NCBI GenBank assembly: GCA_029907165.1
Contig: JARYMK010000001.1
Location: 6,661 to 70,660, forward strand
Reading direction: 5' to 3'
Source of the DNA: Anaerolineae bacterium
GTDB taxonomy: Bacteria > Chloroflexota > Anaerolineae > DTLA01
DNA length: 64,000 bases
The notes below the pieces were generated by a model, which worked only from the letters and a program-made list of their open reading frames with translations, did not search any database and had not been told where the DNA came from. This document shows positions 6,555 to 62,095 of the stretch, one piece after another (position 1 is the first letter of the stretch; each line of letters opens with the position of its first letter). A program made the translations under genes and the position numbers.

Positions 6555-8942
6555 ATGGCCTCGGTTGTCGCCAATCGGTTCAAGGTAACTGGCGTTGTGC
6601 AAGGGGTGGGCTTTCGCCCGTTCGTGTACGGCCTGGCCACGGGGCTGGGCCTGCGCGGTTGGGTCATCAACACGTCGTCGGGCGTGGTGATTGAGGCGGA
6701 AGGCTCGCCCAAGGCCCTGGATGTCTTCGCGCGCGACCTGGTGGCGAAGGCCCCACCCGTGGCGCGCATAGAGACCGTGCAGCGGGAGGAGATTCCGCCC
6801 AACGGCTGGGAGCGGTTTGAAATCCGCGAGAGCCGGGCCGAGGCTGGGTATGTGCTCATCTCGCCGGACATCGCCACCTGCCCCGAATGCCTGCGCGAAC
6901 TGTTTGACCCCAACGACCGCCGCTACCGCTATCCGTTCATCAACTGCACCAACTGCGGGCCGCGCTTCACCATCATCGCCGACGTGCCCTACGACCGGCC
7001 CCTGACCACCATGGCCGCGTTCCAAATGTGCCCGGAATGCCAGGCCGAGTACGACGACCCGCTGGACCGCCGATTCCATGCCCAGCCCAACGCCTGCCCC
7101 GTGTGCGGGCCGCGGGTGTGGCTTGCGCCCGCGTCGGCGGAGGATGGCGAGGCGCTGACGCCGCCCGCAGGCGACCCGGCCAGCGCCGAGGTAATCGCCG
7201 AGGCCGCGCGCTTGCTTCGGGAAGGCGCCATCCTCGCCATCAAGGGCTTGGGCGGGTTCCACCTGGCCTGCGACGCGACCAACCCCGACGCGGTGCGCAC
7301 GCTGCGGGAACGCAAGCGCCGTCCGGCGAAGCCCCTGGCGGTGATGATGTCCTCGCTGGACGAGGTCCGCCAGCACTGCGAGATCACGCCCGACGAGCAG
7401 GCGCTCCTCACCTCGCGCCAGTGCCCCATCGTACTCCTGGAGTGGAAGCGCGACTCCACGGTTGTGGAGGAGGTGGCGCCGTGCAACCGCTACCTGGGCG
7501 TGATGCTCCCCTACACGCCACTGCACCACATCCTGCTGCGCGACGCCGGGCGGCCGCTGGTGATGACGAGCGGCAACCTGTCGGAGGAGCCCATCGCGCA
7601 GGACAACGAGGAGGCCTGGCGTCGGCTGCGCAACCTGGCCGATTGGTTTCTGCTCCACAACCGGGCCATCTACGCCCGCTACGATGACAGCGTCTGGTTT
7701 GTGCCGCGCGTCCCCGACGGCAAGGGAAGCGCCCAGTCGGTGCCCCAGCCGCTGCGCCGCTCGCGGGGCTACGCGCCGTACCCCGTGCGCCTGCCCTTCC
7801 ACGCCCGCACGGTGCTTGCCGCCGGCCCGGAACTCAAGAACACCTTCTGCATCACCCGCGATGAGCACGCCTTCGTCAGTCCCCACATCGGCGACATGGA
7901 GAACCTGGAGACGCTGGAGCACTACGAGACGGCGATGGGCCTCTACGAGCGGCTGTTCCGCCTGCGGCCCGAGGCGATTGTGCACGACTTGCATCCCGAC
8001 TACCTGGCGACGCGCTACGCCCACGAGCGGGCCGAGCGGGAGTGCCTGCCCCTTGTCGGCGTGCAGCACCACCACGCCCACATTGCAGCATGCATGGTGG
8101 ACAACGGCATCACCGAGCCGGTCATCGGCGTGGCCCTGGACGGCACAGGGTACGGCCTGGATGGGCGCATCTGGGGCGGCGAGTGGCTCGTCGCCGACCT
8201 GCGCGGGTTCCGCCGCGCCGCGTGGCTGGAGCCGCTCCCGCTCCCTGGCGGCGACGCGGGCATCCGCAACCCGTGCCGCATCGCCTACGCCTATCTCCGC
8301 GCGCTGTTCGGCGAAGTCCCTGCGCTGCCCTTCCTGGCGCAGATGGACGAAGCCGAAATCGCCGCCGTGCAGCGGCAGGTGGCGCGCGGGCTGAACACCG
8401 TTCTGACCACATCCTGCGGCCGCCTGTTTGACGCCGTAGCAGCGATGGCGGGAGGGCGGGGCCGCGTTACCTATGAGGCGCAGGCGGCCATTGAGATGGA
8501 GATGGCGTCGCAGGCTGACGAGAGCGAGTCCTACGGGTACTTCTTCCGCTGGGCAGAACCGCTCTCGTGGGGGAACACGGATGCCCTGCCCCCGCTGGCC
8601 TGTGCCTTTGAAGTCGCCCTAAAGCCGCTGCTGGCGGGCGTGGTGCGCGATGTCCAGGCCGGGCGAACGCTGGGCCAGGTGGGTGGGCGCTTCCACCACA
8701 CGCTGGCGAACATGATCGCCGACCTGTGCTGCATGATCGCGCAGGGCACCGGCCTCACGACGGTGGCCCTGTCGGGCGGCTGCTTCCAGAACCGCCTGTT
8801 GCTGGAACAGTCGGTGGGCGAACTCCGACGGCGCGGGCTGCGCGTGCTGTTGCATTACCAGGTTCCGGCCAACGACGGCGGCGTGTCGCTGGGCCAGGCG
8901 GCCATTGGCCACTTCGCCCTTGAGGAGGGGCGGGCGCGATGA
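6555..8942 (+). CDS. hypF: Carbamoyltransferase HypF.
   Basis: The N-terminal acylphosphatase domain (FKVTGVVQGVGFRPFVY), two Zn-finger motifs (CPECLRE…CTNCGPRF; CPECQAEY…CPVCGPR), a YrdC domain and a Kae1-like domain are present. Length is 795 aa. Confidence 0.9.
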   Translation: MASVVANRFKVTGVVQGVGFRPFVYGLATGLGLRGWVINTSSGVVIEAEGSPKALDVFARDLVAKAPPVARIETVQREEIPPNGWERFEIRESRAEAGYVLISPDIATCPECLRELFDPNDRRYRYPFINCTNCGPRFTIIADVPYDRPLTTMAAFQMCPECQAEYDDPLDRRFHAQPNACPVCGPRVWLAPASAEDGEALTPPAGDPASAEVIAEAARLLREGAILAIKGLGGFHLACDATNPDAVRTLRERKRRPAKPLAVMMSSLDEVRQHCEITPDEQALLTSRQCPIVLLEWKRDSTVVEEVAPCNRYLGVMLPYTPLHHILLRDAGRPLVMTSGNLSEEPIAQDNEEAWRRLRNLADWFLLHNRAIYARYDDSVWFVPRVPDGKGSAQSVPQPLRRSRGYAPYPVRLPFHARTVLAAGPELKNTFCITRDEHAFVSPHIGDMENLETLEHYETAMGLYERLFRLRPEAIVHDLHPDYLATRYAHERAERECLPLVGVQHHHAHIAACMVDNGITEPVIGVALDGTGYGLDGRIWGGEWLVADLRGFRRAAWLEPLPLPGGDAGIRNPCRIAYAYLRALFGEVPALPFLAQMDEAEIAAVQRQVARGLNTVLTTSCGRLFDAVAAMAGGRGRVTYEAQAAIEMEMASQADESESYGYFFRWAEPLSWGNTDALPPLACAFEVALKPLLAGVVRDVQAGRTLGQVGGRFHHTLANMIADLCCMIAQGTGLTTVALSGGCFQNRLLLEQSVGELRRRGLRVLLHYQVPANDGGVSLGQAAIGHFALEEGRAR

Positions 8943-10036
8943 AGTTCATAGACGAGTTTCGCGACCCCCGACTGGCCCGCTCGCTGGTAGAGCACATCCG
9001 CCAGCGCGCGCACAAACCCATGCGGCTGATGGAGTTCTGCGGCGGACATACCCACGCTATCCTACGGTTCGGCATCCGGCAGGCATTGCCGCCGACGGTG
9101 GAGATGCTGTCGGGGCCGGGGTGTCCGGTGTGCGTTACCGCCGCCGCAGACCTGGACCGGGCCATCGCCATGGCGGGCGTGCCGGGCGTCATCCTGGCCA
9201 CCTTCGGCGATATGATCCGCGTTCCCGGCAGCCGCGAGAGCCTGCAGCAGGCCAAAGCGCGGGGCGCTGACGTCCGCATCGTGTACTCGCCGCTGGACGC
9301 CGTGCGCCTGGCGGAACAGGAACCGGCCCGGCCGGTGGTCTTCCTGGGCGTGGGGTTTGAGACAACGGCTCCGGGCGTGGCCGCTTCCATCCTGGATGCC
9401 CATGCGCGCGGGATTGAGAACTACTACGTGCTTTGCCTGCACAAACTCACGCCACCCGCCACCCGCGCCATCCTGGATTCGGGCGAGGTCAACCTGTCGG
9501 GAATCCTGGGGCCGGGGCATGTTACCACCATCATCGGGACGAAGGCGTGGGAGTTCCTGCCGCACGAGTACGGCGTGCCCATCGCCGTCGCGGGGTTTGA
9601 GCCGCTGGACATCCTGCGGGGCATCTCCCTGCTCGTGGAGCGGATTGCAGGGGGCGAGGCGCGCGTGGACAACGCCTACTCCCGCAGCGTGCTGCCCGAA
9701 GGCAATCGCGCCGCACAGGACATGATGAACCGTGTGTTTGAGGTGGCCGACGCCGAGTGGCGCGGGCTAGGGACGATCCCGGCCAGCGGCCTGCGCATAC
9801 GGCTGGAGTTCCAGGTCCACGATGCCGCCCTTGCATTTCCGGTGGACGTGCCGCCGTCGCGCGAACCCCCTGGCTGCCGCTGCGGAGACGTCTTGCGGGG
9901 CGTCCTGGCTCCGCCTTCGTGCCCATTGTTCGGCAAAGCGTGTACGCCGGAGCACCCCGTTGGCCCGTGCATGGTGTCGGCCGAGGGGGCCTGCGCCGCC
10001 TACTATCAGTTTGGAGATGCGGGACATGAAGGATGA
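8939..10036 (+). CDS. hypD: Hydrogenase maturation factor HypD.
   Basis: The ATGA overlap with hypF indicates translational coupling. The motifs CGGHTH, GPGCPVCV and GFETT are present. Confidence 0.9.
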   Translation: MKFIDEFRDPRLARSLVEHIRQRAHKPMRLMEFCGGHTHAILRFGIRQALPPTVEMLSGPGCPVCVTAAADLDRAIAMAGVPGVILATFGDMIRVPGSRESLQQAKARGADVRIVYSPLDAVRLAEQEPARPVVFLGVGFETTAPGVAASILDAHARGIENYYVLCLHKLTPPATRAILDSGEVNLSGILGPGHVTTIIGTKAWEFLPHEYGVPIAVAGFEPLDILRGISLLVERIAGGEARVDNAYSRSVLPEGNRAAQDMMNRVFEVADAEWRGLGTIPASGLRIRLEFQVHDAALAFPVDVPPSREPPGCRCGDVLRGVLAPPSCPLFGKACTPEHPVGPCMVSAEGACAAYYQFGDAGHEG

Positions 10037-11033
10037 GGCCATCCTGCTCGCCCACGGCAGCGGCGGGCGACTGACGCACGAACTGATCCGCGACCTGTTC
10101 CTGCGCGAGTTGTCCAACCCGTTCCTGGACGCGCTGAGCGACGCCGCCGTCCTGCCGCCGCAGAGTGGCCGCCTGGCCCTGACGACCGACTCCTACGTGA
10201 TTCGGCCCATTTTCTTCCCGGGCGGCGACATCGGCAAACTGGCGGTGTGCGGCACGGTCAACGATCTCAGCATGGTGGGCGCGCGCCCGCTTTTCCTCAC
10301 CATCGGGTTCATCCTGGAGGAAGGGCTGCCCTTCGCCGACCTGCGGCGCATCGTGCGGTCGGCGGCGCAGACGGCCCGCGAGGCCGGCGTCCAGATTGTG
10401 GCTGGCGATACAAAGGTGGTGGACCGGGGCAGCGCCGACCAGGTGTTCATCAACACCGCAGGCGTTGGCATCATCCCCGACGGCCTCTCCCTTTCGTCGA
10501 GCGCCATCCGGCCGGGCGACGCCATCCTCGTCTCCGGGACTGTGGGCGACCACGGGATCGCCGTCATGGCCCAGCGGGAGGGGCTTGGGCTGAGCACATC
10601 GCTGGCCAGCGACTGTGCTCCCCTGAACGGCCTGGCACAGGCTGTGCTGGCGTGCGGCGGCGTGCGGGTTATGCGCGACCCCACGCGCGGCGGCCTGGCG
10701 ACCACGCTGGTGGAACTGGCGCAGGCAGGCGGTGTGGGTCTGGAGATTGACGAGAGCGCCGTTCCCGTCAAGGATGCGGTGCGGGGCGCGTGCGAACTCC
10801 TGGGCCTGGACCCGCTGTACGTCGCCAACGAGGGCAAGTTGGTGGCGGTGGTGGCAGCCGAGGCGGCAGACGCTGCCCTCGCCGCGATGCAGTCGCACCC
10901 GCTGGGCCGCGATGCCCGCATCATCGGGCGCGCCACGCAAGCCCATCCGGGGCGGGTCGTCCTGAAGACCCTGCTGGGCGTGTCCCGGGTTGTGGAGATG
11001 CTGACGGGCGAGCAGTTGCCCAGGATATGCTGA
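10026..11033 (+). CDS. hypE: Hydrogenase maturation factor HypE.
   Basis: MKDEAILLAHGSGG… is the AIR-synthase-like fold of HypE. The gene overlaps the hypD stop. An alternative start lies at 10017. Confidence 0.85.
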   Translation: MKDEAILLAHGSGGRLTHELIRDLFLRELSNPFLDALSDAAVLPPQSGRLALTTDSYVIRPIFFPGGDIGKLAVCGTVNDLSMVGARPLFLTIGFILEEGLPFADLRRIVRSAAQTAREAGVQIVAGDTKVVDRGSADQVFINTAGVGIIPDGLSLSSSAIRPGDAILVSGTVGDHGIAVMAQREGLGLSTSLASDCAPLNGLAQAVLACGGVRVMRDPTRGGLATTLVELAQAGGVGLEIDESAVPVKDAVRGACELLGLDPLYVANEGKLVAVVAAEAADAALAAMQSHPLGRDARIIGRATQAHPGRVVLKTLLGVSRVVEMLTGEQLPRIC

Positions 11034-11055
11034 AGCGCACAGGCCCGCGCTAACC

Positions 11056-11084
11056 TTGACGCGGCCCGCGTTTGGTCGTATAAT
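11056..11084 (+). promoter_or_regulatory. Sigma-70-type promoter (TTGACG-17-TATAAT) upstream of the formate dehydrogenase operon.
   Basis: An exact TATAAT lies 17 nt downstream of TTGACG, in the intergenic region after hypE. Confidence 0.6.
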
Positions 11085-11224
11085 GCGCTCACTTCGCCAT
11101 TTCGTTGGAGAGAACCCGCCATGTTGTGCAACGTGGCCAGCATGATGTTTGGAAAGCACCCTCATCCGCTTGGCATCCCCTCATCCGGCTCCAGTCCGGC
11201 GTCCATATCCAGCGGCTGTCCGGC

Positions 11225-11740
11225 ATGCATGTACGGCCGCTGCAACAGATTCGCTCGCGAAAGGAGGTCGCCTTGAACGACAAACTCCGAGAAATCCTGC
11301 AAGCGCCCGTAACCGGCAAAGGAGACCTCATCCCGCTGCTCCAGAAGGCCCAGGAGGCCGAGGGGTACGTCTCCGAGGAGGCCATCTACGCCATCGCCGA
11401 GAAACTCCGCATCCCCGCCAGCGAGGTATTCGGCGTGCTGTCGTTCTACGCGCAGTTCCGCCTGCGTCCCATGGGCAAGCACAACGTCAAGATATGCCGG
11501 GGCACCGCCTGCCATGTGCGCGGCTCGCCCCTTATCGTTACCGCTGTAGAAAGCGAACTGCAACTGGGAAATGGCGAGGATACCACGCCCGATGGCCTGT
11601 TCACCGTAGAGAAAATCGCCTGCTTCGGCGCGTGTAGTCTGGCGCCGGTGATGGTTGTGGGCGGGCGCACCTACGGGAACTTGAGTCCGGACAAGGCGCG
11701 CCGCCTGATTCGCAAGACCGCGGAGGAAGACCATGTATAG
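11225..11740 (+). CDS. NuoE-like 2Fe-2S (24 kDa) subunit, the FdsG/HoxE-type diaphorase component.
   Basis: The thioredoxin-like 2Fe-2S motifs CRGTACHVRGS…CFGACSLAPV are present. A strong RBS GAAAGGAGG precedes an alternative TTG start at 11273. The true start is either 11225 (ATG) or 11273. Confidence 0.8.
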   Translation: MHVRPLQQIRSRKEVALNDKLREILQAPVTGKGDLIPLLQKAQEAEGYVSEEAIYAIAEKLRIPASEVFGVLSFYAQFRLRPMGKHNVKICRGTACHVRGSPLIVTAVESELQLGNGEDTTPDGLFTVEKIACFGACSLAPVMVVGGRTYGNLSPDKARRLIRKTAEEDHV

Positions 11741-52292: not shown

Positions 52293-54062
52293 CTAGCGCT
52301 TGCGCCTCGCCATCCTCACTACGCCCGCGACGGCCAGCGCGGCGATCAGCGCAAACGCCCCCAGCGGCACGTAGGGGAACGCGGGCGTCGGCGCGGCGCG
52401 TACCACAAACGCATCAATGCCGCACTTTGCGCCCGTGGCCGCGGGGTTCGTTTGCTCCGCCACCGTCAGCGTCAGCGTATGCGGGCCGTTCCCTGCGCCC
52501 TTGACGACCTGGGTTTCCGTCCACAGGTCACCATTGCTGTGCAGGTCCACGTACGAGCGCCCCTGCTCGTCCACCAGAAGCCCGGGCACGTTGCGCCCGT
52601 CCAGCGCCACCAGCAGCCGCCCCGCGTAGGGCGCTTTGTGCACCACCAGGTTGACAATCTGGCCGGTGAACGAGAAGGTGAGCGACGCGCCAGCCTGCGA
52701 CGCCTCTAGGTAGCCGCCCCCGCTCACCTGCGGCGCGAGGATGCGCTCCCACCCGCCCGAATGCGTTACCGCGGGGCTGGTCTCCTCGTGGGTACCCGGC
52801 CCGGCGGGGGGCATGGCCGCGGCGGCCTCCTTGATGGCGTAGTACAGGCGGCGGGGGGTGAAGTCGGGGTCCACCATGCGGAAGTAGTAGGCCGCCTCGT
52901 CCGCCGGGTACTGCCCCACCTGGCGGAAGTACCAGATGCAGAAGACGCCCGCCCACGGCCACCGCTGCCGCGCTATCTCAATCCCGCGCACCGTGTACTG
53001 CGCCTGCGTCTCCTCATCCACCCGCCCCCAAATGAGCGCACCCTTGGGGAACGACTCGGGTGCGGCGTTCCAGCCGTACTCGTTGAACCACACCGCCTTG
53101 CGCGTGTCGCCGTACTTTTCCATGATTTGCCGCAGGAGCACGACGCGGGAGAAGTTGAGTTTGTTCGGGTCGGGCGGGTCCTCCGGCGGCAGGCTCATCC
53201 CGAAGGCGTTGGCCGAGAGGATGTCAAAGTAGTCCTTGGCGCCCGCCTTGTACATCTCTTCCAGGAACTGGAGGTCGCTCATGGAGCGCCACTTGCCGGG
53301 CTCCGGGTGCGGCTCGCCCAGCGTGATGGCCAGCGGCGCGCTGAGGACTACGATGTTCGGGTCGGCCTCCTTCGCCCGCAGATAGGCGATCTTCAGCAGT
53401 TCCACGTATGCCGCCGGGTCCACAGGCCGCTCGCCCCATTCGGGGTAGATGTTCGGCTCGTTCCAAATCTGGATATAGTGGATGCGGCCCTTGAAGTGGC
53501 GGACGAATTCGTACACGAAGTTGCCGTAGTCGGCGAAGTTGTCGGGTGGGCGCTCCTTGTGGGTGTTGTCCTGGCGCGTCCAGTCGGGCGGACGGTCCAG
53601 GCGGGCGATGACCTCCATGCCGTACTGGCGAAACAGGTCCACGATTTGGTCGTACTTGCCCCAACTGCTCTCGCCGGTAGCGGGGATGCGGAAATCGCCT
53701 TTGCGCGGCTCAATCTCCTCCCAGGCGAACTGCTGCTTGGCCCAGCGGATGCCGGCGGCGGCTGCCATCTGAACGGTCTTCTCGCGCTTCCACAGTTCCA
53801 CCTCGCGGGCGAGGAAGAAGTTGGCGCCGTAGGGGTTCACGTCGGTGTTGTGAACCTCGCGCGGCGGCGTCGGCTGCACGCCGGACGAGCGCAGAGCCTG
53901 GCGGTAGTCGTCCAGGGTGCGGCCCACGCCCGCCAGTGCGCCCAGGAGCACGGCCACCAGCAGCACTATCGTGAGAATCTTCCGGCCGGGGAAGCGCAAT
54001 CCTACCTCCAGCGAATCGGTCAGCGTGTGGCGGATTATACCGCTCGCATCCTGCTTTGTCAA
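52293..54062 (-). CDS. Clan GH-A glycoside hydrolase (GH5/GH39-like) with an N-terminal signal-anchor and a C-terminal TM/basic tail.
   Basis: IHYIQIWNEPN is the NEP acid/base motif of clan GH-A. The N-terminal TM is ILTIVLLVAVLLGALAGV and the C-terminus is …FPYVPLGAFALIAALAVAGVVRMARRKR. Confidence 0.65.
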   Translation of the reverse strand: MTKQDASGIIRHTLTDSLEVGLRFPGRKILTIVLLVAVLLGALAGVGRTLDDYRQALRSSGVQPTPPREVHNTDVNPYGANFFLAREVELWKREKTVQMAAAAGIRWAKQQFAWEEIEPRKGDFRIPATGESSWGKYDQIVDLFRQYGMEVIARLDRPPDWTRQDNTHKERPPDNFADYGNFVYEFVRHFKGRIHYIQIWNEPNIYPEWGERPVDPAAYVELLKIAYLRAKEADPNIVVLSAPLAITLGEPHPEPGKWRSMSDLQFLEEMYKAGAKDYFDILSANAFGMSLPPEDPPDPNKLNFSRVVLLRQIMEKYGDTRKAVWFNEYGWNAAPESFPKGALIWGRVDEETQAQYTVRGIEIARQRWPWAGVFCIWYFRQVGQYPADEAAYYFRMVDPDFTPRRLYYAIKEAAAAMPPAGPGTHEETSPAVTHSGGWERILAPQVSGGGYLEASQAGASLTFSFTGQIVNLVVHKAPYAGRLLVALDGRNVPGLLVDEQGRSYVDLHSNGDLWTETQVVKGAGNGPHTLTLTVAEQTNPAATGAKCGIDAFVVRAAPTPAFPYVPLGAFALIAALAVAGVVRMARRKR

Positions 54063-56711: not shown

Positions 56712-56743
56712 GGCATCATCCCCATCCCATTCGGAGAGAAGCC

Positions 56744-57058
56744 ATGAAGCCGATGGTTGCATTCGTTACCGCCGCGAGCACCGACGAAGCCACGCGCATC
56801 GCCCAGGCCCTCGTGGAGGAGCGCCTGGCAGCGTGCGTGAACATCGTCGCGCCCATCGCCTCGGTGTACCGATGGGAAGGACGGGTGCAGCAGGACGCCG
56901 AGGTGTTGCTGCTCATCAAGACCACCGACGCGCGCTTGCCCGACCTCATCCAGCGCGTCAAGGCGCTGCATTCGTACCAGGTGCCCGAAGTCATTGCCCT
57001 GCCCATCGCGGACGGAAGCCCCGACTATCTGCGGTGGCTTGTGGACGAGACGCGATAG
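56744..57058 (+). CDS. cutA: Divalent-cation tolerance protein CutA.
   Basis: VTAASTDEATRIAQALVEERLAACVNIV…SVYRWEGRV…YQVPEVIALPI is the CutA1 signature. Confidence 0.8.
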   Translation: MKPMVAFVTAASTDEATRIAQALVEERLAACVNIVAPIASVYRWEGRVQQDAEVLLLIKTTDARLPDLIQRVKALHSYQVPEVIALPIADGSPDYLRWLVDETR

Positions 57059-58282: not shown

Positions 58283-58675
58283 TTATGGCCGCTGCGCGTT
58301 CCGTCGGAGACCTGCAAGCGTTCGCTTCGCAAGTTCGCGCACAAGGCGCGAGGGGTGGCGCGTCATGGCTCGCAACACGGTCTCGCTGTCCGCGCCGCCG
58401 ATGAGGGTCAGCGCCTCCACGACGGCCTGCGCTTCGTGGAAATCCTCCGTCGCCAGGGCAACGCGCCGCAGCGACGGCACCGCCTTGCGACTGCGCAGGC
58501 GGCCCAGGGCGACGATGGCGATCATGCGGTTCTCGCGGACAGGGTGGCCCAGCGCCAAAAGGAGTTTGTCCTCATAGGATAGGCGGTCGTATTCGGCCAA
58601 CTCGTACCCACAGTGTGAGCAGTGGGTGGCCTTCTCCTCCACGTCCTGCCAGCAGTTCGGACAGAAGTAAATCAT
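58283..58675 (-). CDS. Zinc-ribbon plus HEAT/PBS-lyase-repeat protein, uncharacterized.
   Basis: The N-terminus is CPNCWQDV…CSHCGYEL. It is followed by HEAT-like repeats (…AIVALGRL…AVPSLRRVAL…). Confidence 0.5.
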   Translation of the reverse strand: MIYFCPNCWQDVEEKATHCSHCGYELAEYDRLSYEDKLLLALGHPVRENRMIAIVALGRLRSRKAVPSLRRVALATEDFHEAQAVVEALTLIGGADSETVLRAMTRHPSRLVRELAKRTLAGLRRNAQRP

Positions 58676-58687
58676 GGGCTTCCCCCG

Positions 58688-59125
58688 CTACGTCTCGGCT
58701 CCGAAAAGCGCCGCCAGACGAAGCGCGTGTTCGGCCAGCGCGTCCAGGCGGGGGTCTAGCCAATCCTCCAGCGCGTTGTCCACAGCGCCGTACCGCGCCA
58801 GCCTCGGAGTCTTCACATCGGAGAGGTCGGCCCAACTCACGCTCATGAACGCCGAGGCCGCGGCCTCAATCGGCTCGTCGGCGGGCTGCGCCTCCAAGTG
58901 CTGCGCCAAATCTGCGATCGCCCGCAGGGCAGCGGCGATTTCGGCCCGAATTTCGGCTACCCTCTCCGAGGGCAGGTGGCGCGTGTAGCGGTAGAGAACG
59001 CCCTCGGGGAGAGCCTCGGCCAGCCATGCGTCGGCTTGCCGCAACCGTTCCTCAAACAGGCGGAGCGTAAGGATCACAGACTGATATTGCGATGCATTCA
59101 AGCCCTTGCGGGTGGTTTCAGCCAT
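58688..59125 (-). CDS. Hypothetical protein (145 aa, alpha-helical).
   Basis: The ORF has no recognizable motif. It is tightly spaced between neighbouring genes on the same strand. Confidence 0.4.
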   Translation of the reverse strand: MAETTRKGLNASQYQSVILTLRLFEERLRQADAWLAEALPEGVLYRYTRHLPSERVAEIRAEIAAALRAIADLAQHLEAQPADEPIEAAASAFMSVSWADLSDVKTPRLARYGAVDNALEDWLDPRLDALAEHALRLAALFGAET

Positions 59126-59131
59126 GGTATC

Positions 59132-59992
59132 TTATCCTGGGTCAGCATTTCCACCGTCGGGAGCGCACGGAGCAGATGGCGTGGTCATCTCTCGCCCACC
59201 GAAGAACTCCGCCGCCTTCCGGGGCGCATCGGCTTCGCCGCTCGTCAGCGGCTCGTCGCGGTACTGCCAAGCCTGCTTGCGGATGTAAGCGCCTAGATTG
59301 GCGACCAACGTCTCAAGCCTACCGGTCGCCTCGTCCGCCAGAAAGCGAGCGGTGTCCGGGTCATGCGTGGCCGCGAGGCGAAGGGCCTGGCGCAGGTGTG
59401 CGAGGCACAGCCCGTCCGACGCGGTGTATAGCGCGCGAAAGTCGGGCGCGTCGCACAGGCTGACCAGGGCGCGGACAACGGTCTCCTCCTCGTGAGCGGC
59501 GTGAGCGCACATCCGGCACTCGCCGACAGGGCGCAGTGGATCCAAAGCGCCCGGATGCCTGATCAGCGAGCCGACGACGAGGCGAAAACGGCCCCACGCG
59601 CGCCGCCACCAAACGTTGGGACGCGAGGCCGAAGTCGGCAAGCCCCGGCGGAATGCCACCAGGTCATCTCGCACACGCTCGGCCAGGTCTTCATAGAGGA
59701 TGCTGTTCCCCAGCGCGTCCCCGAAGCGAGTTGTCTCTGTGTGGTACAGGAGCCACGTGTGTTCGGGGCAGAAGCCCAGGCCATGCACGATGTAGGCTCG
59801 TGCGTCGCCGTCGTTCACGTTCTCGGCCAGAAGGAATCGCACGTAGCGATGCACGGTCTCCTCCTTGAGCCGACACACCGCGCACCCCTGGAGGCGGAGG
59901 GCCCGCTTCAGGTCCGCCGAAATCATGCTGAACCGACCTGTGGAAACCGCCTGCGGCTCGCCAATGGCTTGTTCTTGTGGCATCAAGGTCAA
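59132..59992 (-). CDS. Uncharacterized Cys-rich repeat protein (2x CxxC…CxxH modules), paralog of the next gene.
   Basis: The modules are CAVCRLKEE…GFCPEHTW and CRMCAHAAHEE…GLCLAHLRQ. The C-terminal tail …YIRKQAWQYRDEPL…AAEFFGG is shared with the upstream paralog. Confidence 0.5.
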   Translation of the reverse strand: MTLMPQEQAIGEPQAVSTGRFSMISADLKRALRLQGCAVCRLKEETVHRYVRFLLAENVNDGDARAYIVHGLGFCPEHTWLLYHTETTRFGDALGNSILYEDLAERVRDDLVAFRRGLPTSASRPNVWWRRAWGRFRLVVGSLIRHPGALDPLRPVGECRMCAHAAHEEETVVRALVSLCDAPDFRALYTASDGLCLAHLRQALRLAATHDPDTARFLADEATGRLETLVANLGAYIRKQAWQYRDEPLTSGEADAPRKAAEFFGGREMTTPSAPCAPDGGNADPG

Positions 59993-60044
59993 AGGACTCC
60001 TGTATGATAAGGTGAGTCAGTCGCCTGCACTCTAGGCTCTGCTC

Positions 60045-61241
60045 TCACCCGTTCACTCTCTCGCCGCCGAAGAAGACCAATGCGCGCAGCCACGAGTCCT
60101 TCTCCTTCCCCAGAGGCTCGTCGGAGAAGCGGTAATCGTGCTTGCGGATGAGTTCGCCCAGGTCGCGCACCAGCGGGCCCATGCGGGCGGCGATGGCCGC
60201 TGTCCAGGTGCGGGCTTCAGGAGGCGTGGACGTCTCCAGCGCGAGGCGGGCGTGGGGAAGGCAGGCACGCTCGCGGGCCTCGTCGCCCGCGGTTTCCAGT
60301 GCCGCCCAGGCTGCGTTGTGGGCATGGTCGCACATCGGGCAGTCGTACGGTTCGGACTCGCTCGCGGCGAGGGTCTGCTTCACCAGATCGTAGGCGAATT
60401 CGCTCCCATGGCGGTGGAGCGTCCACAGGGTGGCTTGGCCCTGGTGAGTTGGGCATAGCCGCAGCCAGATTCTGGCCAGGTCCTCGGGCGTGATGGCCTG
60501 CAAGAATTCCTGTTCGGCCATCGCCTCGGCATGGCAGCCTGGGCATTGCATCTCCAGGCGCGTGCTGGCTGTGATGTCGGCAGCGCCGCACTGACACAGC
60601 AGCAGATTGGCGATGGCATCAGAGTTATCCCGTTGGGCTTGCCGGGCCGCAGCGGTAGCGATCACGCGCCTGGCTTCTCCGCTGCGCGCGGTATGAATCG
60701 TCCGTTCCGCGTGCGCCAGGCACAGGCCATGGGATACGCCGTACCGTTCCCGCAGCGCGGGCGAGGCGTCCAGCCCTGCGACGAGCGCGCCCAGGTACGT
60801 GCGCTCGCGCTCCTCGGATTGCTCGCACAGCCAGCAGGGCTTTGTGGGCGACAACAGGCGCAGCACCCGATGGTTCTCTCGCGCGAACAGCCGTGCATAC
60901 AGCGGCGCGGGCCTGCTCACGCCCTCAAGGACGGTTTGCGCGAAATCGCGGTACAGGATGGCGATTCCTAGCGGTCCCACCCAGGGGTGATTGACCGCCT
61001 GCCTCACGGCGCGGGTGTGCGTCGCGCAGAAGCCCAGCGAGTCCCGAAGCCGCTTGCGGACGTGGGGCGAGTTGACGTTTTCCCAGAACAGGCTGAACAG
61101 GAACCGTTCCTCGGCGCGCCGCATCAGCCCGCAGATTGGACAGGGAGGCTGGCGCATGGCTTCCATGAGGTTGTAGGCGATGATGTCGGCCGGTGTAGGG
61201 AACCAGCGTTCATCGCCCTGGATAACCCTACGCCTCTCCAT
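60045..61241 (-). CDS. Uncharacterized Cys-rich repeat protein (4x CxxC…CxxH modules).
   Basis: The modules are CPICGLMRRAEERF…GFCATHTR; CWLCEQSEERE…GLCLAHAER; CPGCHAEAMAE…RLCPTHQG; CPMCDHAHNAA…ACLPHARL. The C-terminus is …LIRKHDYRFSDEPL…ALVFFGG. The start at MERRRV (61241) is preferred over 61307, to avoid overlap with the upstream gene. Confidence 0.5.
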   Translation of the reverse strand: MERRRVIQGDERWFPTPADIIAYNLMEAMRQPPCPICGLMRRAEERFLFSLFWENVNSPHVRKRLRDSLGFCATHTRAVRQAVNHPWVGPLGIAILYRDFAQTVLEGVSRPAPLYARLFARENHRVLRLLSPTKPCWLCEQSEERERTYLGALVAGLDASPALRERYGVSHGLCLAHAERTIHTARSGEARRVIATAAARQAQRDNSDAIANLLLCQCGAADITASTRLEMQCPGCHAEAMAEQEFLQAITPEDLARIWLRLCPTHQGQATLWTLHRHGSEFAYDLVKQTLAASESEPYDCPMCDHAHNAAWAALETAGDEARERACLPHARLALETSTPPEARTWTAAIAARMGPLVRDLGELIRKHDYRFSDEPLGKEKDSWLRALVFFGGERVNG

Positions 61242-61809
61242 CGGACCTCCCCAAGCCCAGCCGCCGGAGGATGCGGCGCACCAGTCCGGCCGGCCTCTGC
61301 GCGGCATGGACCTCGCGCAGTGTCGTAGGCGCGGGCTCCACCACCCCCGGAATGCGACGTGCGGTGCCCCCGCCGCGCCCGCTTTTCAGGGCTGCGATCT
61401 CCTCGTTGAGCCTCTGGATGTGGCCCTCCAGAGCGTGGATAGTGTTGCGCAGGGCCGCGTTCTGGATCTCCAGCGTCTGGTTGTCCTTCATGAGGTGGAA
61501 CGCTCTGTACTTCATCACCGCGTACAGGGAATCCAACTGCATGAGGCGATCCGAAAGGCCGCCAGGCGTGTCCAGCGACGCCAGGCTGTCGTCGGAGATG
61601 ACCTGGTCGGTCTTGATTTTGGCAAGCCCCAGCGTCAGCGCGATGCGCAGCCCCTCTTCTTCGGTCCAGCCGTTTGCGGCGAAGACCTGCTTGGCCTCCT
61701 CCAGCGTCTCGCGCAGGATGGATATGGCAACTTGAATCACCTCTGCGCCCCGGAAGAAGTCGCGCTCCATTTCCTCTGTGGACAGCTCATGCTCGTCCAT
61801 GTGAATCAC
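61228..61809 (-). CDS. Hypothetical coiled-coil protein (193 aa), first gene of the Cys-rich cluster.
   Basis: The N-terminal helical domain is followed by a heptad-rich segment (LEIQNAALRNTIHALEGHIQRLNEEIAALK) and a basic C-terminus. Confidence 0.4.
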   Translation of the reverse strand: MIHMDEHELSTEEMERDFFRGAEVIQVAISILRETLEEAKQVFAANGWTEEEGLRIALTLGLAKIKTDQVISDDSLASLDTPGGLSDRLMQLDSLYAVMKYRAFHLMKDNQTLEIQNAALRNTIHALEGHIQRLNEEIAALKSGRGGGTARRIPGVVEPAPTTLREVHAAQRPAGLVRRILRRLGLGRSDGEA

Positions 61810-62095
61810 CCCCTGAGACCCCTAAAGAAAAAAGCCTCTACACGCAATGGTGTAGAGGCTATCAGTCCGAACCGACGTGCTGGGCCTACGGCCCCGGCGA
61901 GCCTCATCGCCACGAATACTATATCACGGTCGGGCGCATGTGTCAACCCACGCACGACGGATTACTGAGGCACGGAGTGCCGAAGAATCTCGCCAACCGA
62001 GATGCTTCGATCAGCATGACGGACAAGGCCTGGGATTGCCTCGGGCACTCCGTACCCTCGCGATGACAACGGATAATCCTCTCTGTGGTCAAGCG

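Follow-up and report, generated by a model that had tools for sequence, protein, structure and literature searches.

A five-gene DUF6062 cluster behind a predicted fluoride riboswitch in an Anaerolineae genome

The gene cluster

The window analyzed here is a stretch of 64,000 nucleotides (nt) from the metagenome-assembled genome of an Anaerolineae bacterium (assembly GCA_029907165.1, contig JARYMK010000001.1, positions 6,661 to 70,660), and all window positions are counted from its first letter. On the minus strand, between 58283 and 61809, it holds five tightly packed genes, A to E from 5′ to 3′, and the 290-nt gap between gene A and the CTP synthase gene pyrG carries the features of a fluoride riboswitch leader. 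Gene A (61228-61809) codes for a coiled-coil protein of 193 amino acid residues (aa), more likely translated as 190 aa from the ATG at 61800, to judge from Shine-Dalgarno spacing and the NCBI protein length. Gene B (60045-61307) codes for a double DUF6062 protein with four Cys3His modules. Its probable start is Met23 at 61241, and inspection of the sequence finds GGGGAGG, a Shine-Dalgarno-like motif, 6 nt on the 5′ side; the product would then have 398 aa, in agreement with the length of about 398 aa given in a first-pass annotation of this DNA. Gene C (59132-59992) codes for a single DUF6062 protein with two Cys3His modules and 286 aa, although Shine-Dalgarno spacing and the NCBI annotation (283 aa) suggest that it may start at the ATG at 59983. 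Gene D (58688-59125) codes for a 145-aa protein without a family assignment, and gene E (58283-58675) for a 130-aa protein with an N-terminal zinc ribbon (CxxC-x10-CxxC) and HEAT repeats.

All five open reading frames (ORFs) lie where the first-pass annotation had placed them, and the tight packing it described is borne out, with overlaps or gaps of at most 52-61 nt. Genes A and B overlap, B and C are 52 nt apart (61 nt if C starts at 59983), and the gaps from C to D and from D to E are 6 and 12 nt. The G+C content of the window is about 65% throughout. The cluster is flanked by CTP synthase (PyrG) on one side and, on the other, by a convergent epimerase gene, CutA1 and a CBS/DHH gene of the poly(A)-polymerase family. 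A defense island or mobile element was ruled out by these housekeeping flanks and the lack of a significant PADLOC match; among the PADLOC defense models, the best match is a generic HEAT-ARM model (E 2.6e-4) and the others have E values of at least 0.039.

The leader

Consensus scanning of the interval from pyrG to gene A locates a promoter and a terminator. The putative sigma-70-like promoter (61918-61946, minus strand) consists of TTGACA-17 nt-TATAGT with an extended -10 TG, and matches the consensus at 11 of 12 positions. It is the sole promoter-like site between 57900 and 62400, compared with a mean of 0.6 in shuffles. The predicted transcription start falls just 5′ of a fluoride riboswitch aptamer of the RF01734 (crcB motif) type at 61849-61912, minus strand, which has a P1 helix GGCG/CGCC and a pseudoknot GAGGC:GCCUC. 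The segment GGCGAUGAGGCUCGCC ... CUGAUAGCCUCUAC aligns to the Rfam consensus, including the P1 helix, the 8-nt loop and the conserved GGCGAUG and CUGAU. An intrinsic terminator (61823-61860, minus strand), found by the terminator scan, lies about 23 nt 5′ of the start codon of gene A. Its hairpin (61860-61833) has an 11-bp stem, AGCCUCUACAC/GUGUAGAGGCU, followed by a U-run, and is part of the minimum-free-energy fold (-43 kcal/mol, z -2.6). Since the 5′ arm of the terminator is the same strand as the 3′ strand of the aptamer pseudoknot, the arrangement is that of the expression platform of an ON switch. Terminators that overlap the crcB motif, implying ligand-induced expression, have been described (PMC2864571).

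Although the window copy has the core of the RF01734 class (a GGCGAUG...UCGCC P1, a pseudoknot from the loop to the 3′ tail, and CUGAU), and its terminator overlaps the aptamer in the same way, it differs by an extra hairpin of 14 nt, GGGGCC-GUA-GGCCC, in the variable region and by a sub-threshold Rfam score. The full RF01734 model matches 61846-61920 with 20 bits, below the gathering score of 34 (E 0.032 in 4.5 kb and 0.0016 in 221 nt). The score is low because of the extra hairpin and the non-consensus pseudoknot strands, whose pairing the covariance model leaves out of the score. These strands pair at all five positions, and three of the pairs differ from the consensus GGaGU:ACUCC on both sides, as compensatory changes do. 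R2, a covariance model that excludes the window and its closest relative (locus L013), gives the window site 52.7 bits (E 1.7e-13), and no other site in the 64 kb exceeds 12.7 bits.

Based on these features, promoter, aptamer, terminator and genes A to E very probably constitute one operon that is switched on by fluoride. The presence of the riboswitch in the leader makes fluoride stress the likely physiological context of the cluster. This leader, with its riboswitch and terminator, is the most informative feature of the locus and was overlooked in the first-pass annotation. The element adds a member to a known riboswitch class, and the protein module that it controls is without a characterized counterpart.

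Fluoride riboswitches in related loci

A scan of one genome per GTDB species yields 80 DUF6062 loci, nearly all from Chloroflexota (Anaerolineae, Thermoflexus, Ardenticatenia and Ktedonobacteria), with a few labeled Rokubacteria, Methylomirabilales, Bacillota or Moduliflexus. A riboswitch lies upstream on the same strand in 39 of these 80 loci, within 400 nt in 27 and within 8 kb in 12 more; among the loci closest to gene C, it is present in 25 of 29. When nine related loci are scanned at the Rfam gathering threshold, fluoride riboswitches are found in L001, L004, L007 and L010, with scores of 35.7-44.4 bits. The riboswitch lies directly upstream of DUF6062 in L001 (35.7 bits) and in L010 (44.4 bits), and a second one in L010 (41.5 bits) lies upstream of CrcB. 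In L007 (37 bits) the first gene is D-like and is followed by enolase and pyrophosphatase genes. In L004 (39.7 bits) the riboswitch heads an operon that runs from a CPA2 Na+/H+ antiporter through Usp, CrcB, DUF190/CBS and MFS to DUF6062, dynamin and a second DUF6062.

A structural pattern with P1 paired at four of four positions and the pseudoknot at five of five matches 51 times in the loci, which total 1.45 Mb, and never in their reversed sequence. Behind every match lies a terminator in which the aptamer tail is paired with the 3′ arm, GGTAGAGGC; such an overlap is seen in about 45 related riboswitches. A covariance model, R1, built from 38 of the matches, finds about 60 sites with E<1e-4. 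In the alignment of the 38 sequences, P1 and pseudoknot together are 98.5% paired, against 37-54% in slid controls, although this figure leans toward structure, since part of the set was chosen by a pattern that requires pairing. Six of the nine pairs change on both sides. Taken separately, P1 is paired in 96.7% of cells and the pseudoknot in 100%, with double changes in three of its five pairs.

In some relatives within the Chloroflexota, a stretch of 20 kb contains three or four fluoride riboswitches, often as divergent back-to-back pairs that serve both directions: L018:9704-9762(-)/9868-9934(+), L021:2562-2628(-)/2709-2794(+), L041:17029-17090(-)/17214-17262(+) and L010:14149-14209(-)/14471-14533(+). 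Such riboswitch clusters represent an unusually dense set of fluoride-controlled genes.

The DUF6062 proteins B and C

Both B and C are members of the Pfam family DUF6062 (PF19538), which has no assigned function and no solved structure. The cut-off is 27 bits, and B exceeds it with 73.1 bits over two stretches, C with 59.8 bits; the NCBI name for C is 'DUF6062 family protein'. The first-pass annotation had described the two as paralogs with four and two CxxC...CxxH modules and a common tail, and the motif positions agree. In B the modules are C56/C59...C94/H97, C158/C161...C196/H199, C255/C258...C285/H288 and C323/C326...C349/H352, and in C they are C37/C40...C75/H78 and C159/C162...C196/H199. 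The C-terminal tail that both share reads RK..Y(R/F)..DEPL...FFGG. The repetition of these modules is far beyond chance.

The search for relatives of C found 36 homologs. In 34 homologs, with identities down to 28%, the eight ligand positions of C (C37, C40, C75, H78, C159, C162, C196 and H199) are invariant, as are K239, E253 and G266 in the tail. The earlier proposal of repeated metal-binding Cys3His units thus gains support, and their invariance is what would be expected of metal ligands. Of the 118 DUF6062 ORFs counted in related loci, 4 have four modules and 111 have exactly two, in which the spacer measures 33-35 residues. Aligned with each other, the two halves of the DUF6062 domain prove homologous (hhalign probability 96.5%, E 1e-9, 53 columns), so the module of the first-pass annotation is a real evolutionary unit. 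The family is large: a profile search of 1.84 billion representatives returns 5,231 DUF6062 clusters at 50% identity, 3,794 of them with E<=1e-10. It has two architectures, a single form of about 240 aa, like C, and a double form of about 450-520 aa, like B, which is common.

The AlphaFold model of C, which has a predicted local distance difference test score (pLDDT) of 87 and a predicted template modeling score (pTM) of 0.76, is all alpha-helical, with no beta-strands or beta-hairpin. In this model the ligand pairs open helices, C37/C40 standing before helix H38-58 and C75/H78 before helix H76-90. The treble-clef-like fold suggested earlier is therefore at odds with the model, which lacks the beta-hairpin zinc knuckle. 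A fold search of the PDB with the model of C gave no match, comparison of the family with PDB sequence profiles gave no relatives, and NCBIfam and PADLOC searches added nothing for DUF6062. In the library searched, no paper on DUF6062 or PF19538 turned up, and searches pairing the fluoride riboswitch with MutS, Chloroflexi, dynamin, HEAT or cysteine-rich brought up nothing on the family either.

The statement that the cluster matches no characterized system holds for the proteins, for which none was found, but the two paralogs are classifiable by above-threshold matches to DUF6062. In the same way, the confident Pfam match means that the novelty of the family had been overstated, even though DUF6062 itself is functionally blank. 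What is added to DUF6062 here is the link to fluoride riboswitches, the internal duplication of two modules and the conserved partners.

One further DUF6062 ORF stands apart. In L085, from a Rokubacteria metagenome-assembled genome, a stop-free ORF of 825 aa at 8903-11377 (+) contains DUF1499 (165-300) and DUF6062 (366-559), with no riboswitch detected. The ORF may represent a fusion or, alternatively, two genes that share a frame.

Proteins A, D and E

Protein A begins with a helical domain, continues in a long helix predicted for residues 82-144 and a Pro-rich linker, and ends in a basic amphipathic tail, GLVRRILRRLGL. The long predicted helix fits the earlier description of A as a coiled-coil protein, and the AlphaFold model is poor (pLDDT 64.5). 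The tail (window 61228-61300) has a hydrophobic moment of 0.87, compared with a within-protein 95th percentile of 0.70. Most long-form A-like proteins (L001, L013, L017, L019, L038, L042 and L083) likewise have, behind a Pro-rich linker, a basic amphipathic C-terminus in which W/F/L and R/K abound; short second copies of about 130-140 aa are without the tail. The tail may act as a membrane-targeting helix, its composition being compatible with peripheral membrane binding. Searches with A against Pfam, NCBIfam, PADLOC and PDB profiles returned only generic coiled coils, and the same searches with D returned no relatives. A ribbon-helix-helix DNA binder was considered for A and rejected, since 20 members show no ribbon-helix-helix match and the AlphaFold model (pLDDT 64.5) places a helix where a strand is expected.

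Protein E matches HEAT_2 (PF13646) over residues 36-121 with 37.2 bits against a cut-off of 27.7. Zinc-ribbon models fall slightly under their cut-offs (about 20-22 vs 25-29 bits), but E, first described as a zinc-ribbon/HEAT-repeat protein, does have the CxxC-x10-CxxC motif. Of the 21 HEAT proteins that accompany DUF6062 in related loci, 18 keep the ribbon. In L042 a single stop-free ORF at 7174-8976 (+) joins zinc ribbon, HEAT repeats and MFS (DZR 27-49, HEAT_2 97-172, MFS_1 218-432), directly 3′ of a fluoride riboswitch at 7105-7167. In the operons of L004, L010, L020, L021, L024, L028, L034, L038, L041, L083 and L092, MFS proteins of about 400 aa are encoded by genes of their own.

Gene neighborhoods and companion genes

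Conservation of the gene neighborhood, which had been proposed as a check, is found: A-, D- and E-like genes recur beside DUF6062 in many genomes, in varying order. In L001 the order is DUF6062-DUF6062-A-D, followed by enolase, and the A-like and D-like proteins match those of the window with E values of 5e-18 and 3e-30; the tight or overlapping spacing of the genes is seen there as well. L013 has A followed by a double DUF6062. DUF6062-A-HEAT is the arrangement in L024, L026, L031, L033 and L034, and L007 and L010 have DUF6062-HEAT-MutS_V-MutS_V with a D-like gene nearby. In L004 and L054 a dynamin-like GTPase lies between two DUF6062 genes, the second of which is followed by a gene for a 170-aa protein.

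When the genes downstream of 64 riboswitches are clustered, DUF6062 accounts for 71 genes in 44 loci and is the first gene in 31 cases. In the Chloroflexota-centered set of fluoride-riboswitch genes sampled here, DUF6062 is the most frequent first gene. The next cluster, with 34 genes, merges Zn-ribbon/HEAT and MFS proteins because the L042 fusion joins them. It is followed by A-like proteins (28 genes; 21 related loci), MutS_V (14), Usp and DUF190-CBS (14), D-like proteins (12 genes; 12 related loci), CrcB (10), His_Phos_1 (7), Na+/H+ exchangers (7), pyrophosphatase (6), enolase (5) and dynamin-like proteins (5). Distant DUF6062 genes without a riboswitch (L044-L093) show no conserved neighbors, only local synteny such as ribosomal-protein genes in three loci.

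As for the MutS_V genes, mutS genes were already noted in association with the crcB motif at its discovery in 2010 (Weinberg et al.; PMC2864571). In the relatives they share riboswitch operons with DUF6062 and HEAT genes, whereas the window operon has no MutS_V gene. They occur as pairs of proteins of about 500 aa that contain MutS domain V only (L010:9236-12261 (+), L007, L018, L032, L041 and L083). The pair matches the NCBIfam model KamC, the reactivase ATPase of lysine 5,6-aminomutase, weakly and below its cut-off (E 1e-10 and 5e-20). This similarity hints that the 'mutS' genes behind crcB motifs could have a chaperone or reactivase role rather than one in mismatch repair.

Two other families recur in these operons. 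A second Cys-rich uncharacterized family (160-215 aa, no Pfam or NCBIfam match; L010:14590-15081 (+), L020 and L094) is the first gene after the fluoride riboswitch and is followed by CrcB and DUF190/CBS. A protein of 292-313 aa with no family match lies near pyrophosphatase and His_Phos_1 in fluoride-riboswitch operons (L007:3874-4752 (+), L041 and L083).

Proposed mechanism

Transcription most likely begins at the sigma-70-like promoter at 61918-61946, and the leader would fold into the fluoride aptamer at 61849-61912. In the absence of fluoride, the 3′ strand of the aptamer, GCCUCUAC, would join the 11-bp terminator with its U-run, and transcription would end before gene A. When Mg2+ and F- are bound, the pseudoknot GAGGC:GCCUC would retain the 3′ strand, the terminator would be blocked and A-B-C-D-E would be transcribed. 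This switching mechanism is established for the riboswitch class and is assumed for the window copy.

In the protein part, B and C would be all-helical, each module of roughly 53 residues being pinned by one Cys3His metal site, most likely a structural Zn2+. Together with A, possibly tethered to the membrane by its basic amphipathic tail, with D and with the Zn-ribbon/HEAT adaptor E, they would probably assemble, as a stoichiometric scaffold or adaptor complex, to limit damage by fluoride. Such a complex is suggested by the gene overlaps in several genomes, the recombination with genes for nucleoside triphosphatases (NTPases) and the co-occurrence with transporters. Elsewhere DUF6062 has MutS-domain-V ATPase pairs or a dynamin-like GTPase as partners, along with transporters of the MFS, CrcB and Na+/H+ types, which suggests a role in protection or repair rather than export. 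The protected target would be fluoride-poisoned, metal-dependent machinery at or near the membrane. More broadly, it can be proposed, tentatively, that DUF6062 and its A, D and Zn-ribbon/HEAT partners, often with MutS-like ATPase pairs or a dynamin-like GTPase, constitute a fluoride-tolerance machine distinct from export. Such a machine might act as a metal-stapled scaffold that recruits NTPases to free or repair targets blocked by metal fluoride, or it might shield membranes and transporters. The specific mechanism, a metal-stabilized scaffold that limits fluoride damage, is speculative and may well prove wrong.

Assessment of the proposal

Overall, a fluoride-switched-on operon whose proteins have a scaffold-type role is the best explanation of these observations, with a probability of about 0.7. 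Several points weigh against it. The window aptamer is under the Rfam gathering score, the 38-sequence RNA set was partly filtered for pairing, and the genes downstream of the riboswitches were called by an ORF heuristic of our own. Among genes A to E there is no NTPase, no transporter and no known fluoride gene. In 41 of the 80 DUF6062 loci the fetched flanks hold no riboswitch, so the family is not exclusively fluoride-linked. Furthermore, the loci were recruited with a single motif (ASDGLCLxH) and the sample is biased to one DUF6062 subfamily; it therefore shows that this subfamily is fluoride-regulated, not what fraction of all fluoride riboswitches controls DUF6062.

The sub-threshold Rfam score and the half of the DUF6062 loci that lack a detectable riboswitch would also be expected if the riboswitch-like element were a chance match or a relic, and the cluster a zinc/redox stress or phage-defense module with no link to fluoride. 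Combinations of NTPase, HEAT and zinc-ribbon proteins do occur in defense systems, and PADLOC gives a weak match to HEAT-ARM_XIII (E 2.6e-4). This explanation is nevertheless largely refuted by the comparative data and appears most improbable: the leave-out model still scores the window site at 52.7 bits, P1 and pseudoknot are kept by compensatory changes, the terminator overlap is conserved, and riboswitches that pass the threshold occupy the same position in relatives, with no matches in the reversed-sequence control. The operons also hold genes for CrcB, enolase, pyrophosphatase and the Na+/H+ antiporter, and in the window no PADLOC match is significant and the flanking genes (PyrG, epimerase, CutA1) are of the housekeeping type. 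Other alternatives accept the fluoride regulation and differ in what the proteins do. DUF6062, the coiled-coil protein A or both could be regulators that widen the fluoride response, for example as a zinc anti-sigma-like or DNA-binding factor. Zinc-binding helical proteins would suit such a role, DUF6062 heads 31 of the riboswitch operons, and the N-terminus of A looks superficially ribbon-helix-helix-like on inspection of its sequence. ZAS anti-sigma factors such as RsrA, and likewise Hsp33, are stress-induced proteins with a Cys/His-ligated metal, and in this respect B and C would be analogous to them. They have no sequence or fold similarity to B and C, however, in which the ligands come as two to four copies of CxxC...CxxH. 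The ZAS motif HxxxCxxC is absent from B and C, which have no Pfam match of this kind, and no sigma factor gene occurs in the neighborhoods examined. A regulatory role is judged quite improbable.

The alternative that B and C are iron-sulfur or redox proteins, with [2Fe-2S] or [4Fe-4S] clusters on Cys3His ligands, which act against oxidative or metal stress under the same fluoride regulation, deserves more weight, even though it too is unlikely. Cys3His sets ligate Fe-S clusters in mitoNEET and IscR, for example, and the sets in B and C are invariant in the homologs. A second Cys-rich family stands beside CrcB under fluoride riboswitches in L010, L020 and L094. According to PMC11139923, fluoride upsets the homeostasis of divalent metals and elicits responses to oxidative stress. 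On the other hand, B and C lack the CDGSH motif of mitoNEET as well as radical-SAM and ferredoxin motifs, match no Fe-S family in Pfam, and are not accompanied by Fe-S assembly genes that recur in the operons. Moreover, ligand pairs at helix N-termini, 34 residues apart and repeated two to four times, resemble structural staples, as the scaffold proposal supposes.

Possible significance for fluoride tolerance

Known fluoride resistance consists of exporters and the overproduction of sensitive enzymes. The canonical fluoride-response genes that have been listed belong to the exporter, antiporter, pyrophosphatase and enolase classes, and reviews state that there are further resistance determinants still to be identified (PMC11139923). 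These classic companion genes are found in the operons of the relatives. DUF6062, A, D and the Zn-ribbon/HEAT protein, in contrast, fall outside the gene classes discussed in PMC2864571 and PMC11139923, and the window operon contains neither an exporter nor a known fluoride-sensitive enzyme. There is a substantial chance that the operon hides a new mechanism of fluoride tolerance, and a fluoride-stress response with DUF6062 proteins in Chloroflexota has apparently not been described so far.

In the sampled Chloroflexota loci, the gene that most often comes first after a fluoride riboswitch belongs to a large uncharacterized family, and genes for other uncharacterized proteins and for MutS-like or dynamin-like NTPases accompany it. 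The genes named here are candidates for fluoride tolerance, of relevance to organofluorine bioremediation and biosynthesis, in which fluoride toxicity is limiting, and sodium fluoride (NaF) offers a physiological condition under which DUF6062 can be studied. The operons also provide a context for the long-standing association of mutS genes with the crcB motif, which would be explained if a tolerance machine does recruit MutS-like ATPases.

Other features of the window

Two other features of the window lie outside the operon. An ORF of 589 aa at 52293-54062 (-) has hydrophobic segments at both ends and no Pfam match at E<=1e-5. The gene for CutA1, a divalent-ion-tolerance protein (Pfam 133 bits), is located at 56732-57058 (+), about 1.2 kb past the end of the operon and on the opposite strand.

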